A DNA stretch of 57,861 nucleotides, counting the filler, from Basidioascus undulatus (taxonomy: Eukaryota), in the NCBI GenBank assembly GCA_000826855.1. It is 5 parts of 5 records of this genome, joined end to end, with 100 filler letters (N's around TTAATTAATTAA, not from the genome) between each part and the next. Parts side by side here need not be neighbours in the genome. Positions count along the whole stretch, not along the records: positions 1 to 27,857 come from JTLS01000156.1; 4 more parts are not named here. One strand, written 5' to 3'. This document shows positions 2,545 to 23,044 of the stretch, piece after piece. The position numbers and the translations under genes were made by a program. Position 1 is the first letter of the stretch; every line of letters starts with the position of its first letter. Below the pieces are notes generated by a model. That model ran no database searches. It saw nothing but the letters and a program-made list of their open reading frames with translations, and had not been told where the DNA came from.

Positions 2545-4969
2545 TCACTCGTAAACCGCAAACTTGCTCTGCGCCACACGCTTGCGGACCGCCTCGTCCC
2601 CGACGTTCGCGCCGCGCTCGGCCTTGCCCTGCGAGGACGACATCGCGCCTTGGCCGTAGCGCTCTTCCATCTCTGTTTCAATACTTTCAGTTTTGTTATT
2701 GGAGGTATATAGGATGGAAAAACTCACCCTCCACAGAGACGGCCCGCAACTTCTGGCTGGGGGCGACGTACGTCTTCGCAGCGGCGTGCTTGTCGACCTC
2801 GCACCCGCCCTCGAGGACGCCGACGCGCATCATTTCCAGTAGGTTGTGGGCGGCGTTCGAATGGGATTCCTCCAACGAACGCGGTAGACGCGTCCCGGCC
2901 GGTCATCTTCTGGAGGAGGTGGCGACCGCCAGGGCTGTTGAGGAGGGTCAAGGGGTCAGGAAGGCTCCGCCGCCGGGCACTCGAAGTTTACTCAAGAGAC
3001 TTACTGCTCATCCACGAACGAGCTAACGCCATGTATGTAGCCATGAATGAGGACGAGTGTCTTGGACTGCACGGGCAGCGAGCAAACATGCAGGTGAGAC
3101 GCTGTGCTCGAATGCCGAAGAGCAGAGTACGCACAGGCATCCCAAGAAACCACCGGCAAGTCATTGGCGTCATCGGCCAGGTAAGCGCGCCCTGCTTCGC
3201 CTTGAGCTGCTTGATCTGCATGGGTGAGCTCGCCCTTGCGGATCTCTGTCCCCACGCAAGCAAGCCCGCATGAGCCTCTGCACGATCAGACCAATTGATG
3301 AGGACGACGCAGCGCACCGTTCTTCTGGAACGCCTTGAGGCGCGTGGCGAGGCCGAGGTAGTACATTATGGCGATGAACCATTTCGTGCTGTAAAGACGA
3401 GGGTATAGCGAGCTGCGATCAGCTGAGGGTAGAGGAAGGGAAGACGTACGGGTTGTACTGGAACCACTTGATCGCGTTGCGGTAGTCGTTGGGGTACTGT
3501 TGGTGGCTGTGTTGCGCGTGTGTGTCAAATCCAGCACGCATGCGAGGAAAGAAAATGGAGAAACGCACAAGTTGTGGTACCCTTCGCCAACAGTCACGAT
3601 GGCCGTGAGGAGGTGGTTCCTCGGCGTGTGCTTGTCATCGTACTGCGGAACGTCCCCCTCGCCAATCCCTCGTCGTCCCAATCCCAAGCCGCCAAACTCA
3701 CAGGCCGGTCCCCAATCCAGTGCGCCAGCGAGTTAACGCAGAAGGTCTACTACGCCCATCCCACCCTCTCAGCAACCGCAACCCAGGCCCCGCCCAGCTC
3801 TAAAAAAACACTCACATGGTGCACGATCGTAAGTCTCATGGCCCCAGCGTAGAAGTAACCCCCGCGCCAGTCGCCCCACAGGAGGCCGGCACGACAGTGG
3901 GGATGATGAACGCCATGGTGACATCGTCGCGAGGTAGTGACGCTGCTGCCAGCGGAGGAGCAGGTCGCGCATCAGGTCCGACACGTCGGCGACACCGGGC
4001 TTGCGGCGCGCCTTCATGAGCATCCCTGGATTGCAGTACAACCAAACGTCAGTCAGACATGTTGCGGAGGTAATGCAGCGAGACGGGGGCACTGACAGCC
4101 GATGTGCGAGAACCAGAAGCCCTTCATCGCGTCGTAAGGGTCGAGGTCGGTGTCGGTGTCTGCAGAGGAGGGACGGAAATGTCAGCTATGGATGGGGAGA
4201 ATGGGAAGAAGGCACAGAGAAGACGTACAGCGGTGGTGAGCGCGGTGGCCGCGCGACCACCACTTGACACTGCCCTGGCAGACACCCGAGCCAGCGAACA
4301 TGAGGAACCATTGCAGGGGGCGGGAGGCGTTATAGCAGCCTGTGGAGCCAGAAAGTCAGCACCACGCAGACCTGCAGACTCGAAGAGGGGATGCGTACGG
4401 TGCGCCCAGAGACGATGATAACCTGCAGGCTCGATAACCCTCAGCCTTCCTTCTTTCCGAAGTGACGAAGAGAAAAAGAAGACGCACCCGCAGTGATACC
4501 CAGCCCAGTAACAAAGTACCAGAAGAAGCTGAACCAGAACGTCTTGGCCTGCAGCGGCGTCTTGAGCATGCCGTAGATGGCGATGCTCGGGATGGTGATG
4601 AGAAGGACTGCCGAAGGGGTGTCAAAGTCTAGAAATGGGCAGGATTCACCGGCTTACTGATGTTAAGGCAGTTGAGTTCAGTCCAGAAGTTCTGCAGCGT
4701 GATGGGCGGCCGCGGCTGGGTACCTTTCAGCGTGCGATGGACGTAGTCGTCCTCGAGGTAGGCGTCGATGGTGCCTGAAAGAATTCAAGCAATCAGATGG
4801 GTCCATTCCACCGATTTTGCCCACGTCGAGACGTCCAACATGTCCTCCGGTCGAGCGGCGGAGGAGCGTCGAAGGAGCCCGCCATCTGCTTGGGCGTGAG
4901 CGGCGGGCTGAGCTCGCCGCAGGACGGGGCCGGCGTGCGGATGCTGGGGGATACTGGGCCATCTGACAT
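2545..4969 (-). pseudogene. OLE1: Delta-9 acyl-CoA desaturase with C-terminal cytochrome b5 domain (OLE1-type), disrupted
   Basis: Spliced motifs [39 protein letters not shown], b5 EHPGG and HSNAAHNLLEMMRVG. Disrupted by frameshifts near 3921, 3891, 3223, 3175, 3065 and 2864, a TAG at 3747-3749, and His-box 3 reading HNFHQ. Confidence 0.88.
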
Positions 4970-16010: not shown

Positions 16011-17852
16011 ATGGCTCCCCAGACAATCCGGACCCCCCTCACCGACCTGTTCGGGATCGACCACCCTATCATGCTCGCAGGCATGAACGTCGCTGCTGTA
16101 AGGGCCGATTCAAGCTGTGCTGCATGCCGGGCTGGATCTGATGGACTGGTGGCGAGCGTTGCAGGGCCCGAAGCTCGCGGCGGCAGTCACGAACGGAGGT
16201 GCGTTTCTGGACGACCTCATCCGCGTCCGCCCGGAACTGACCCTGTTTTCTTGGATGAAGGCGGTATTGGTGTCCTCGGTGGAATCGGTACGTTTGTTAA
16301 TGTTAGTTTCTGTAGCACTTGAAGCTTACCCAGGACGGAAGGCTACACGCCGAAGGTGCTCCAGATGCAGATCGACGAGCTCAAGGCGGACCTGAAGGAC
16401 AAGAACGCGCCGTTTGGCGTTGACCGTGCGTTTCCACGTTTCCCAATCCACCTTGCTTACTTTACTTGACTGACCCAGCGGTATCTGCTTTCAGTGCTCC
16501 TGCCTAAGGTCGGCGAGGGTGCCCGCGCAACCAATTACGGTCAGTAGCAGCGCACGCATCTCGTCTGCCACTGCTTGACGTAGTCCTTGTGAGACCAGAC
16601 TACACGAAGGGCCAGCTCCCCGAGCTGATCGACGTGATCATCAACTCTGGCGCGAAGCTGTTCGTCTGTGCGGTCGGTGCGTCCGCTCCCCCTCCTCCCA
16701 CCCATACCTTTCCGCCATCTCACCGCGCCCGCTCCCACTCCCCAGGCGTTCCTCCGAAGTTCGCCGTGGACAAGCTTCATGCTGCCGGAATCTCCGTGGC
16801 GAACATGATCGGGCACCCGAAGCACGCGGAGTACGCGCTCCGCGCGGGCGCGGACATCCTCGTCGCGCAGGGCGGTGAGGGCGGCGGGCACACGGGCGAC
16901 ACGCCCTCGTCGATCCTCATCCCAGCCGTCGTGGAGGCTGTGAAGGGCCGCAAGGCACCCCTGAACGGGAAGCCCGTGCAGGTCGTTGCAGCCGGGGGAA
17001 TCTACAATGGGAAGGGACTCGCTGCGGCTCTGGCTTGGGGCGCGACGGGCGTTTGGTACGTCTCTCTCTCTTCTATCCTACCCGCCCACTTCCGCTGCGG
17101 GCTGACACACACATTCAACAGGGTCGGCACCCGGTTCGTCGCCTCCGTCGAGGCCGGCGCCCCCAAAGTGGGTCCCTCCCCGATCCCACCATTCTTCGCA
17201 TACCTTCCCCCCCTTCCCCATTCCTCTTCACTGCTCACGCATTCCGGGAAAACAGTACCACAAAGACTTGGTCGTGAAGTCCGGGTGGGACGACAACGTG
17301 CGCACGCTGATCTACACGGGGCGGCCGCTGCGCGTGTTCGGGCACGAATACGCCAAGGATTGGGAGGCGAATCGCCAGGAGGAGATCAAGAGCTTGACGA
17401 GCGCGGGGAAAATTCCGCACGAGGTCGAGCTGGCAAAGCGGCCGGAGATCTCGGCCAAGTCGAGGCGTGCGTTTTTCGTCTCTTTCACCGTGGCTTGTTT
17501 ATTTGTGATGGGATAGTGGCTGACGATGCTTTTGTCGGGGGGTGCAGCGTGGCTCATGGGCAGTACGTAGCATCGCTTATCGCAGCCACTACGCTGCAAA
17601 GCACAGTCCTCTAACATTCTGGCCTGTTTCCGCCATCTCTAGAGGTCGCAGGCGCCATTACCGTCCGTCCCCTTCCCTTCCCTCGCATCTTTTTTCACCT
17701 CTTATGGAACCCAAGCTGACTGGAAGGCACGGACGGGTCAATAGGACGTCCAGCCGGCGCAGCAGATCATCGATGAGATGATCGCCGAGGCTGCGCAGCA
17801 GCTCAAGACGGGCGCGAGCTACGTAGTCGGCGGGGCGTTCTCGAAGCTGTGA
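16011..17852 (+). CDS. Nitronate monooxygenase / 2-nitropropane dioxygenase family flavoprotein with C-terminal PTS1 (SKL)
   Basis: MAPQTIRTPLTDLFGIDHPIMLAGMNVAAGPKLAAAV, AQGGEGGGHTG, VAAGGIYNGKGLAAAL and VGTRFVAS. Last exon ends ...GGAFSKL*. Confidence 0.92.
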
Positions 17853-20277: not shown

Positions 20278-22146
20278 TCAGCGCTCGACCGCCGCCGCTA
20301 GCCCCTCGTCCGCGGCCTTGAGCTCCTTCAGGCCCGGTGCCCGCGGCTTGTCGAAGATCTGCTTGATGCGTCGGGGCGGGGGGCAGTGTTAGAGGTAGGA
20401 TAGAGGGGGGAGAGGAAGGATGGAGGGAGGGAGGAGGAAAGGAGGAAGGACTGACCTGGCCCTCCCGCTCGTAGCACGCGTAGGCAAGGTCGTAGCTGGG
20501 TGAACGTGAGGGATCAACAAGGGAAGAGAGAATAAATGAGGGAGCGACGGAAGTGGAGAAGCAGCGGCAACGCACCCCTCGAACTCGTAGCCGATCTTGT
20601 CCTTGCGGACGTACCCGCGTAGGAGGCGGGACCCGAACTCAGGCACGCTAACCGCGGACTTCTCCTCCTCCTCCTTGCCCACAAACAGCGTCATGCTAAT
20701 CCTCCCCGGTTGGAAGATGTCGATGACCTTCCTCACGAGCTCCTTGAGCTGCTCGCGGCTCCCGATTGGGACGTTGCACTCGAAGCTAGCGTAGCTCCAG
20801 CCCTCCTCGGGCGTGACGTGGATGGTGAAGTACCGATCGCCGGGGCCCCAGAGCGCGTTCGCGCTGTACCCGCACGGGTGGAAGAGGTACGCGTCGAGCG
20901 TCGCTTCGGGGAACAAGGACGCGATGCCGGTCGAGGCGGAGAGAGCTTGGCCGGGCCCGTGGCCGGAAGGGGAGTTCACTTCGTCTGCCGGGCAGAAGAA
21001 GGGCGCCATGGCCGCGGGGGAGAGGTGGGTCATGAGGATCTCGAGCGTCGTGTCGGGCGGGGAGGGCGAGAGGGACAGGGTCTGCGGGATGGAGAGCGAG
21101 GGGGGCGGGAGCGACGCGAAGGACGTGGAGAGGTCGGACGTCGGCGTGGTCAGGTACAGGAGCCAGTGGTCGCCGTTGACCTTGCCGACCGTGTACGCCG
21201 AGCCGTTCTCTGACATCCCCGCCATGCAAAACAACGGTCAGCATCCCTAGCGGTTCTCCCGTTTTCACCCTTAAGCGCCACGCACCGAAGATCCCGTCCA
21301 AGAACCCCACTTCGTCCTCCCATGCGCGGTGCGGCCCCCGCTGCCGCTCGGGGAACATGAAGCTCTTGCGCGAGTAGAAGCAGCGCCAGACGGTGTCGAG
21401 GCCGCACCATTGCGACGCGATTTCGAGGATGCGCGGGAGGCCGAGGAGGAGGGTCGTCGTTCCGCAGGTTTTGAGGATGATCCGGTGGGTGGAGACGAAG
21501 AGAGAAGATTCACTGGGGAATGGGAGCAGAGCGTTAGGAACCCCTTTCATCCCTTCCGCGAGGGCACTGCGTGTGGAGCGGAGCCACTCCGTCAAAGCTC
21601 CAAGCGCCGCTCCACTCCATCAACTCGAACCAGCGCTCCTGGATTCCACCCGACAGGCAACACAACCTCCTCCTCCACACCTGTACCGTCCAACGATGAT
21701 GTGAACCTACTCACCTGAGAAGATACGCGTCCGCCTGCTCGCCCTCGATAACGCTGAGGACCTTGCACTTGACCAAGTCCAGCATGTCCTCCCACACCTC
21801 CCTCGTAACCCTCCTCAGCCCGTGCCTCCCCTCCCGTCCCGCAGGCGCGTGTGCTGGTGAGTCCGGGATCGCTTCGGGCGAGGTAGAGAACCAGATCTCG
21901 AGCACTGCCGCATCCCATCTCTTCAGTTGCCTGCCGGGTCGTGTGATCGAAATCTTCGAGCCTCAAACCCACATTTCTCAGGTCAGGATACGCCAAACAC
22001 CCCAAGCCGCCTCTGTTAGCGCATGTGAAGGCGTTTGAGACAGCAGAGGAAAGGAAAGAGAAGTACCCCTCGAAAGGCCCCGGCGGGTCGTCCGCTGCGG
22101 GCGCGAGGATCTGCGGCTGGAGCGAGGGCGAGTCGAAGGCCGTCAT
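20278..22146 (-). CDS. SPE2: S-adenosylmethionine decarboxylase proenzyme
   Basis: Spliced GPFEGPEKLLEIWF, AYLLSESSLFV (pyruvoyl cleavage site), [35 protein letters not shown] and [20 protein letters not shown]. The model needs the 11-nt exon 21973-21983 with a UG acceptor. Confidence 0.95.
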
Positions 22147-22163
22147 CGTGGCGAGTAGGGCAT
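22143..22163 (-). promoter_or_regulatory. uORF MPYSPR* overlapping the SPE2 start codon
   Basis: ATG CCC TAC TCG CCA CGA TGA; the TGA shares bases with the main ATG (ATGA). Confidence 0.6.
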
Positions 22164-22785
22164 GTAATGGAGCGTGGACGGCCCGGGAGTCGAATTGGAC
22201 AGTAGAGTCCAGGAAAATGAAAGAAAGCGAGGAGGAGGAGCAGGAGCAGGAGTTGAAGTTCTTAGAGAAGACGCGAACTCTCAAAGGCCTGGCACATGCA
22301 GATTGGGGCATTTTCTGGCTATCGGCGTTTCAGAATTCGCGTTTGTCGCGTTGTTGTTTTCTTCTTTTTCTTGCTTCGCTGGGTACACCTTCTGCCTACC
22401 CGAGTGAACACTCGATGTGGGGTTTTATACAATGCGATCTCCGGAATGCAGCGGTATCCTCACACACAAGTCCCAGAAAATCCGTGTCCAGGCGCCGAAG
22501 CGGGCGTGCCGCGCAGTGTCGCCGCAAGCTTGATGGCCGCTGAGGAAATGATGCACGGTCAACCTTTCACGGAGCGCAAGCACACCTGTTCAAGTATTCC
22601 CACTAATTAATGGCCCTTATACCGACTGAATCCAAGACTTCAGAGCAGATGCGGGCTGGACAGTGCTCAGTGCCGATCGCCACCGCAAGTTGTGGTCGCA
22701 GGACATACATCTCAAACGTACGCTGTTAGTGCTAAGGGCCAGCGGGAACCTCAAGAAACGACTGCACGCTACAGATAGTGGGCTT

Positions 22786-23044
22786 TGCAGGTGGCAGCAG
22801 GCCTGCACAGCCCCAAGATCCGCGGCCCTGGAGTCTGCCAGCGGACACACCGCTCTCTTCTCTTCACCGCGTTCGCTTCCTCCTCACTCCCGCTACTCTG
22901 GTTCTCATTGGGACTACTGAGCCACCATCGAAGCTTCCTTTTCTCCCCTCCATTTAACTTCGTGCCAGCGTCATGGCCACCTTTCCGCACCTTCCTCCCG
23001 AGATCCTCGGCGAAATTGCATCGCACCTGGTCGACCTTCGTCCT
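22786..23044. repeat. Right arm of the inverted duplication (partner 19162-19410)
   Basis: Reverse-complement similarity to 19162-19410, covering the upstream region and first codons of an F-box gene. Confidence 0.85.

Follow-up and report, generated by a model that had tools for sequence, protein, structure and literature searches.

We found that the S-adenosylmethionine decarboxylase gene (SPE2/AdoMetDC) of Basidioascus undulatus needs an 11-nt microexon, preceded by an intron that begins with GT and ends with TG in place of the near-universal AG, to encode the full-length enzyme, and an assembled transcript contig confirmed this structure, as the original prediction from the DNA had proposed. 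The stretch analyzed (hereafter, the window) comprises 57,861 bases of assembly GCA_000826855.1, in which the part carrying the gene comes from JTLS01000156.1. The genomic evidence is from two read sets, X1 (2014) and X2 (2025), and that for the transcript is a single contig assembled from one run, X3, which shares its sample with X2.

Gene identity and exon-intron structure

The minus-strand gene is a basidiomycete S-adenosylmethionine decarboxylase. Three of its exon translations matched the PF01536 profile (E = 2.2e-51, 3.1e-32 and 2.7e-12), with scores of 175.4, 112.5 and 46.9 bits against a curated cut-off of 22.2, placing the product in this family. When spliced through the TG junction, the gene model encodes a 420-aa protein with both AdoMetDC hallmarks, FEGPEKL near the N-terminus and the self-cleavage region (...SESS...). 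FEGPEKL was present in 104 of the 120 best homologues; the others had FEGAEKL (2), ATGPEKL (1) or a truncated N-terminus (13). Residues E1, S2 and S3 of exon 4, which we take to be catalytic, were invariant among the 17 sequences compared. The AdoMetDC of the source organism itself was absent from the protein collection searched (115-2000 residues), and the closest proteins shared 49-53% identity on exon 5 and 51-57% when the spliced model was used. Of 21 long open frames scanned nearby, just one had a Pfam match, at 16508-17611, to nitronate monooxygenase. The features of the gene are as follows, in the order of transcription.

22067..22146, minus strand: exon 1, coding part, from ATG (22146-22144) to ...TTC GAG GG, ending in phase 2 within a Gly codon
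21984..22066, minus strand: intron 1, 83 nt, GT...TG, from the 11 letters at the joint 21904>22067 and the path search
22015..22019, minus strand: putative branch site CTAAC, branch A at 22016, predicted from sequence
21984..21985, minus strand: non-canonical 3' splice site TG (T 21985, G 21984), from the transcript joint, the path search and the genomic contigs
21973..21983, minus strand: microexon, 11 nt, from the X3 contig (record 13), its unique match in the window and its translation
21977..21978, minus strand: AG within the microexon, read from sequence, 7 nt 3' of the TG; positions -6/-5 relative to the following donor
21905..21972, minus strand: intron 2, 68 nt, GT...AG (gtgggt...gcag), from the transcript contig and the path search
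21931..21932, minus strand: AG within intron 2, from a splice model (open 425-aa frame, PEKL lost)
21715..21904, minus strand: exon 3, rest of the Leu codon and then L-E-I-W-F, PF01536 positions 11-61
21513-21714, minus strand: intron 3, 202 nt, GT-AG, from the transcript contig
21286..21512, minus strand: exon 4, proenzyme self-cleavage region ...LLSESS..., PF01536 match
21210-21285, minus strand: intron 4, 76 nt, GT-AG, from the transcript contig
20576..21209, minus strand: exon 5, PF01536 match (E = 2.2e-51)
20496-20575, minus strand: intron 5, 80 nt, GT-AG, from the transcript contig
20456..20495, minus strand: exon 6, 40 nt, from the transcript contig and the spliced model
20359-20455, minus strand: intron 6, 97 nt, GT-AG, from the transcript contig
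20278..20358, minus strand: exon 7, coding part, stop codon at 20280-20278

The microexon supplies the rest of the Gly codon and Pro-Glu-Lys, its last base opens a Leu codon, and the donor gtgggt follows it. The donor of intron 1, gtactt, is the only one of the six without G at +5. This intron has a pyrimidine-rich stretch upstream of the putative branch site and ends ...tatccTG, so that position -3 of the acceptor context (c-c-T-G/A) is a pyrimidine and position +1 a purine. The putative branch site is 32 nt from the G of this TG and 39 nt from that of the next AG.

Transcript and genomic evidence for the TG junction

The X3 contig (record 13; 1502 nt, depth 78.1) matched the window with 0 differences and lacked all six introns, reaching 22067-22272 at exon 1. 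It skipped five stretches, whose ends on the plus strand were all CT..AC, corresponding to GT..AG in the direction of the gene. In the 162-base skip (21904 to 22067), 11 letters were inserted between the two sides, and these are the reverse complement of 21973-21983, the only match to this 11-mer in the 57,861-base window, in which 0.01 would be expected. Aligned to the genome, the transcript thus gives an intron with a GT donor that ends in TG, followed by an internal exon of no more than 15 nt that is flanked by two introns and keeps the frame. The FEGPEK junction that had been looked for is present in the contig.

In an exhaustive path search, 0 canonical routes (GT/GC-AG or AT-AC, up to four introns of at least 20 nt each) spelled the X3 transcript, which excluded a twin intron or a chain of tiny exons using canonical sites only. 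The two-intron solutions were just GT...TG (22066-21984) or GG...CT (22067-21985). The recorded type of X3 is a guess, 'DNA?', and we took the run as RNA-derived solely because six of six introns are missing. The intron joints were absent from the genomic runs X1 and X2, so the spliced contig does not represent a genomic retrocopy. X3 yielded a single contig on SPE2 and no contig of a second isoform, though assembled contigs drop minor variants.

The original prediction had also named a sequencing error as the simpler alternative, with CAG as the true acceptor, and this would be the simplest explanation if there were no data. The genomic contigs make it all but impossible. X1 record 4 (depth 17.8) and X2 record 10 (depth 55.3), from different years and studies and at different depths, both cover 20584-22500 and match the window throughout with 0 differences, including the T at 21985, and the window itself can derive from one of these two sets at most. 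CAG at the acceptor, which was looked for, did not appear in the contigs of either set. These data show, at the level of contigs and not of reads, that the TG is present in the genome of the transcript's own sample. A genuine A-to-T mutation is a possible origin of the TG.

Products of other acceptors

Among the junctions modeled, only the TG junction gave both the conserved motif and the 420-aa protein. Use of the AG at 22014-13 would give a 40-nt exon, a frameshift and a stop after 69 aa; the AG at 22012-11 would give a 38-nt exon that is in frame and stops after 35 aa at TCC TGA; and the AG at 21978-77 would give a 4-nt exon, a frameshift and a stop after 57 aa. If the microexon is skipped, the frame shifts as well, as had been predicted, with a stop after 90 aa. 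The claim that all nearby AG options are unproductive held for these three sites and overlooked a fourth, the AG at 21932-31 (exon from 21930), which leaves a frame of 425 aa open and replaces PEKL with nine unrelated residues. No use of this site was seen in the X3 transcript contig.

UCC-UGA is the +1 ribosomal frameshift site of antizyme, and the parallel drawn with it did not survive translation of the 38-nt-exon isoform. This hypothetical isoform contains the identical six bases; here, however, translation after a +1 shift at TCC TGA ends at residue 68, and the exon occurs in no X3 transcript. A -1 shift stops at residue 37, and the frame is kept only by readthrough of the stop codon.

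A proposed mechanism for TG splicing

We think it quite likely that intron 1 is a GT-TG intron of the major spliceosome, followed by the 11-nt microexon and the canonical 68-nt intron, and that splicing at the TG gives the normal enzyme in the following way. CTAAC at 22019-22015 would set the window in which the acceptor is searched for. The AGs at 22014-13 and 22012-11, just 2-5 nt 3' of the branch site, would be too close for use. Exon ligation would occur at the TG 32 nt downstream, which retains the last G, the -3 pyrimidine and the +1 purine. With the AG 7 nt further on, the site would form a TG-AG tandem like those in human U2 introns, and this AG may aid early definition of the intron. 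The AG within the microexon would be a poor site for ligation itself because only 4 nt separate it from the next donor, so that it would lie directly against the site bound by U1/U6. We infer these steric limits, the branch site and the part played by the downstream AG.

The fungal branch-site consensus is CTRAY. This consensus, and similar elements in introns 3-6 (CTAAC, CTGAC and CTCAC), point to CTAAC as the likely branch site. By analogy with the tandems described in the available part of PMC2374985, the microexon AG at 21978-77 is a candidate TG-AG tandem partner.

By its donor, its branch distance and the literature, the intron is of the U2 type. The donor consensus of U12-type introns is RTATCCTT. 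A U12-type intron was rejected, with a donor (gtacttct) that misfits this consensus and a putative branch site at a distance of 32 nt from the intron's 3' end. According to the available part of PMC10639083, minor introns have not been convincingly reported in Basidiomycota.

Two other readings bear on how the mRNA arises from this locus. The transcript fits boundaries of GG...CT (22067-21985) as well as GT...TG because a G stands on both sides of the junction, and GG-CT was the sole other two-intron solution of the path search; the intron would then interrupt the Gly codon in phase 1, as in four metagenome loci described below. These boundaries are nevertheless extremely unlikely, since they break the splice-site rule at both ends, including the near-invariant 5' G-U, whereas GT-TG keeps a canonical donor and is the class catalogued in the portions of PMC11590231 and PMC2374985 at hand. 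It is also conceivable, if very improbable, that this allele is null or leaky and that the productive mRNA comes from an allele in the second nucleus of a dikaryon, or from a paralogue, with CAG. The mRNA of such an AG allele would equal the observed contig, and a heterozygous site may be collapsed in assembled contigs. Against this, the two genomic contig sets contained only T, with no differing contig at 90% likeness or above, and the depth of the 2680-nt genomic contig was close to that of its neighbours (17.8 vs 19.3 in X1; 55.3 vs 44 in X2), not suggesting an allele at half depth. The transcript also had 0 differences from the locus over 1502 nt. We retain a GT-TG intron spliced from this locus as the preferred reading.

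Related loci

The shared acceptor structure was sought in SPE2 loci from metagenomes, using the best 80 of 404 confirmed stretches; 7 of these extended too short a way upstream, leaving 73 informative. The microexon was absent in 73 of 73 of these loci (from the best 80 of 404), so conservation of the TG has no support. The FEGPEKL region was uninterrupted in 69 of the 73. The remaining four (L045, L046, L051 and L061), three of them near-identical, have a canonical intron in the Gly codon, in phase 1 and one base from the position of the TG intron. Loci found as a single segment may be cDNA and are then uninformative on introns; frame changes between tblastn segments indicated genomic DNA in 46 of the 73, and the motif was uninterrupted in 43 of these 46.

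Is the TG acceptor a regulated switch?

Under a regulatory reading, a weak TG would face competition from other sites or from the AG that follows it by 7 nt, frameshifted mRNAs would go to NMD, and the share spliced at the TG would set SPE2 output, possibly in response to polyamines. All other junctions modeled stop early, bar the one that loses conserved residues, as such a switch would have it. Human TG acceptors always stand beside an AG-derived isoform, and the authors speculate on a 'regulatory bottleneck' (PMC2374985, in the part available). AdoMetDC is under tight post-transcriptional control elsewhere, through uORFs (as far as covered in PMC2811004) and through a 5' UTR RNA motif in Neurospora crassa (PMC5640933, in part). 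On the other side, the X3 contigs, which miss minor forms, contained no alternative isoform; the structure was unconserved across the 73 informative loci (from the best 80 of 404); and nothing ties the site to polyamines. Folding of the 186-nt region revealed no excess of RNA structure (z = +1.78; 192 of 200 shuffles folded at least as well), and no Rfam family matched within 21700-23000, with E values up to 1 allowed. One short uORF is present in SPE2 here and is not conserved. On balance, we consider a regulated switch unlikely.

A narrower form of the idea, that the TG, the AG 7 nt on and the microexon form a polyamine splicing valve, in which the TG leads to active AdoMetDC and the AG to decayed mRNA at a ratio that tracks polyamines or growth, is quite unlikely. 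If true, the valve would be a splicing counterpart of the uORF control of AdoMetDC in animals and plants, with a TG acceptor as the obligatory productive site. We treat the link to polyamine regulation as a hypothesis only, and in our view the arrangement is an oddity that is tolerated and essentially constitutive, not a demonstrated regulatory switch.

Comparison with known systems

The TG acceptor resembles the human TG-AG tandems (Szafranski et al. 2007, PMC2374985, in the part available) in its GT donor, terminal TG, -3 pyrimidine, +1 purine and an AG within 28 nt; the AG at 21978-77 lies 7 nt 3' of the TG, and those at 22012-11 and 22014-13 lie 27-30 nt 5' of it. In human U2 introns, as far as this source goes, a TG never serves as the only acceptor, and mutation of AG>TG activates adjacent AGs and not the TG; competition from the AG 7 nt downstream would accordingly be expected here. 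Whereas a productive AG always accompanies the human TG, which is the alternative site (PMC2374985, same part), in this fungus the TG alone yields the conserved enzyme, and its partner AG leads to a 4-nt exon and a frameshift, with no use of that AG seen in the contigs.

GT-TG introns, a rare exception to the AG rule, and microexons are already catalogued in mushroom-forming fungi, and this SPE2 case adds to them. The curated annotation of Ganoderma lingzhi contains 22 GT-TG introns (0.024%; PMC11590231), likewise transcript-supported and from a basidiomycete, and the part of that paper available gives counts only, without a tie to SPE2 or to microexons. A long-read annotation of Coprinopsis cinerea placed microexons of up to 15 nt in about 9% of gene models (PMC12230235); like the one here, they are internal and their omission leads to a premature stop, and the available part of that source makes no mention of a non-AG acceptor before them. 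No description of a TG acceptor or microexon in a fungal AdoMetDC gene was found in the literature searched, whose scope did not extend to the supplementary gene lists of PMC11590231.

The known controls of AdoMetDC comprise the MAGDIS uORF in mammals and tiny and small uORFs in plants (PMC2811004, in part), and the SDC motif in the 5' UTR of the Neurospora crassa mRNA (from the available part of PMC5640933). They concern the same enzyme, respond to polyamines and act at the mRNA level, but via the 5' leader on translation, not via splicing.

For annotation, gene finders that demand AG and ignore tiny exons would mis-model SPE2, an essential enzyme, with a truncated N-terminus or as the 425-aa form without PEKL, and the locus would be a good test of pipelines that annotate fungal genomes. 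For splicing, the TG is preferred, in the assembled transcript at least, over an AG 7 nt further on. No other choice is productive, a step beyond human genes, where TG is never the only acceptor. With its short intron, clear putative branch site and tiny exon, the Basidioascus undulatus gene is a compact substrate for the choice of site in the second step of splicing.

Transcript and gene model of SPE2

The S-adenosylmethionine decarboxylase (AdoMetDC; yeast SPE2) gene comprises seven exons at 20278-22146 on the minus strand. In a profile search, the stop-to-stop translations of three exons matched Pfam PF01536 (E = 2.2e-51, 3.1e-32 and 2.7e-12). The best homologues from a protein search were basidiomycete AdoMetDC proteins of many orders, with identities of 49-53% on the largest exon and 51-57% on the spliced model, indicating a basidiomycete without a close relative in the protein collection. 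The only other Pfam match among 21 long open frames scanned was a nitronate monooxygenase (PF03060, E=3.6e-21) at 16508-17611 (plus).

Junctions at the 5' end of the SPE2 coding region
22067, minus strand: end of exon 1, reading ...TTC GAG GG, then gtactt
21973-21983, minus strand: 11-base microexon, with ...tatccTG before and gtgggt after
21905, minus strand: 3' end of the second intron, reading ...gcag

Contigs assembled from sequencing runs were compared with 20300-22500, and three runs matched, none recorded as RNA. One of them (X3, from the same sample as the genomic run X2) yielded a 1502-nt contig at a depth of 78.1, with no differences and five skips, the ends of which were all CT..AC on the plus strand and thus GT..AG on the gene strand.

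Skips in the X3 contig
20358>20456, 20495>20576, 21209>21286, 21512>21715, 21904>22067

At the skip 21904>22067 (162 bases), the 11 letters between the two sides are the reverse complement of the microexon, and this 11-mer occurs once in the window (21973-21983, minus; 0.01 expected by chance). None of the X3 joints was found in the genomic contigs of X1 or X2, so the spliced contig is derived from mRNA and not from a genomic retrocopy. The original prediction that full-length SPE2 is made via a TG junction and an 11-nt microexon is thus borne out, and this structural part of it is supported by RNA: the TG junction is present in mRNA, the genome has TG at this site, and the encoded protein is the canonical enzyme. 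X3 is labelled 'DNA?' but behaves like a transcript assembly, its contig over the gene lacking all six introns; its size is 15.7 million letters, whereas the genomic runs reach about 34.5 million.

The TG-junction model encodes a 420-aa protein with the N-terminal motif FEGPEKL, and was the sole junction among those translated to do so. Among the 120 best homologues of at least 369 aa, FEGPEKL precedes LE[ILV]WF in 104, with FEGAEKL in two and ATGPEKL in one; the 13 without the motif are N-terminally truncated models.

Alternative readings of the junction

A single A>T error had been put forward as the simpler alternative. X1 (2014) and X2 (2025, another study) each gave one 2680-nt genomic contig covering 20584-22500 with no differences, at depths of 17.8 and 55.3, and both have the T of the window. 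Since no base in this region differs between the window, X1 and X2, and no more than one run can be the source of the window, sequencing error is ruled out. A heterozygous site collapsed in the assembled contigs is improbable; no differing contig was found at 90% likeness or above, and the depths of the gene contigs resemble those of neighbouring contigs.

All ways to spell the transcript from genomic 22100-21870 were exhaustively enumerated. Restricting introns to GT/GC-AG, optionally with AT-AC added, and allowing as many as four of 20 nt or longer (enough to take in nested introns as well as strings of 1-3-nt exons), left no solutions, and splicing by canonical introns only was rejected. 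Two introns with any end dinucleotides gave exactly two solutions, in which a first intron of GT...TG (22066-21984) or GG...CT (22067-21985) precedes a canonical GT...AG intron at 21972-21905. The GG...CT boundaries spell the same transcript, but they break both intron ends, whereas GT...TG keeps a normal donor and belongs to a catalogued intron class; we regard GG...CT as highly improbable.

Translation of the junctions agreed with the claims that 40-nt and 4-nt exons and skipping of the microexon all shift the frame, and that a 38-nt exon is in frame yet meets a stop at TCC TGA. The broader statement that all nearby AG options are unproductive holds for the AGs then named and not for one that was missed, at 21932-31 within the second intron. 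Joined to the exon 1 donor, it gives an open 425-aa frame in which nine unrelated residues replace PEKL, a product that is very probably non-functional.

Anatomy and proposed recognition of intron 1

The donor of intron 1 (gtactt) is alone among the six in having no G at +5. A pyrimidine-rich tract is followed by a CTAAC element at 22019-22015, the putative branch site; introns 3-6 have CTAAC, CTGAC or CTCAC elements 11-30 nt ahead of AG. Two AGs lie 2-5 nt past the presumed branch A, which we judged too close for use. The TG is 32 nt past it and has C at -3 and A at +1; the next AG, 7 nt beyond the TG, belongs to the microexon and occupies -6/-5 relative to the donor that follows. Two adjacent copies of a five-base unit, CCTGA-CCTGA (21987-21978, minus), hold the TG and this AG in near-identical contexts; a small duplication may have given rise to this arrangement. 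Predicted folding of the region was not unusual, the minimum free energy being -54 kcal/mol compared with a mean of -61.5 for shuffled sequences (z = +1.78), and there was no match to an Rfam family.

Intron 1 ends in eight bases, GTATCCTG (21984-21991, minus), that resemble the U12-type 5' splice-site consensus. Basidiomycota are reported to be without convincing minor introns (PMC10639083), and this likeness is therefore probably a coincidence. Since, in addition, the donor and branch spacing are unlike those of U12 introns, we infer that intron 1 is a major-spliceosome intron.

The closest described behaviour is that of human TG-AG tandem acceptors, in which TG has a pyrimidine at -3 and a purine at +1 and is always within 28 nt of an AG (PMC2374985). 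All of these sequence features are present at the SPE2 site. The authors propose that the AG acts in intron definition during step I, with the final choice, possibly of the TG, left to step II. They describe TG as never the sole site in human genes, whereas in SPE2 the TG is the only productive site and splicing at the partner AG would produce an exon of 4 nt. We speculate that exon ligation could disfavour the AG 7 nt downstream because it abuts the sequence bound at the next 5' splice site. The last intron G is considered, on structural grounds, to matter most. Yeast without Prp18 is reported to activate non-YAG 3' sites (PMC10711555), which fits this view.

Related loci

Metagenomes were scanned with exon 4 as bait, avoiding bias for or against N-terminal introns. 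Among the best 80 of 404 confirmed loci, seven were uninformative (upstream DNA of at most 194 nt). The motif was uninterrupted in 69 of the 73 informative loci, including 12 with Thr or Ala for Pro and one (L074) read by eye. Frame changes between tblastn segments mark 46 of the 73 as genomic DNA, and 43 of these have the motif uninterrupted. The four informative loci with an interrupted motif (L045, L046 and L061, near-identical, about 2990-3000; and L051; about 67% G+C) each carry one canonical GT...AG intron, at phase 1 of the Gly codon that is also split in the window and one base from the phase-2 position there. Intron sliding could account for this offset, as could a separate gain at a GAG|G proto-splice site. 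With a microexon in none of the 73 loci, the two-intron microexon structure looks lineage-specific, conservation of the TG itself aside.

Regulation and upstream frames

The suggested antizyme parallel does not hold up. Shifting the frame at TCC TGA of the hypothetical 38-nt isoform leads to a stop at residue 68 (+1) or residue 37 (-1); only readthrough would yield a 429-aa product, with a nine-residue insert. No transcript with the 38-nt exon was present among the X3 contigs, which hide minor isoforms. A weak TG competing with decay-targeted products would be compatible, by analogy, with the human precedent.

A six-codon uORF (MPYSPR-stop; 22143-22163, minus) lies within the transcribed leader, its TGA overlapping the main ATG (ATGA). 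It equals the mammalian AdoMetDC uORF in length, but the sequences are unrelated. Only five of 67 related loci have a uORF ending -6 to +12 nt from the start codon, with unrelated peptides, so conservation gives the uORF no support. A second ATG (22309-22311, minus) precedes the proximal start by 165 nt, is in frame with no intervening stop and would add 55 residues; the X3 contig ends at 22272, within a low-complexity CT-rich stretch.

Significance

A curated annotation of Ganoderma lingzhi includes 22 GT-TG introns among about 92,000 (0.024%; PMC11590231), and Coprinopsis cinerea has microexons of at most 15 nt in about 9% of gene models, with 835 needed to avert a premature stop (PMC12230235). 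We found no description of a TG acceptor in a fungal AdoMetDC gene in the literature searched. The SPE2 TG acceptor is confirmed as a genuine departure from the splicing rule, of a rare kind, in a gene of core metabolism; the locus can serve to test annotation and offers a compact system for studying how 3' splice sites are chosen.
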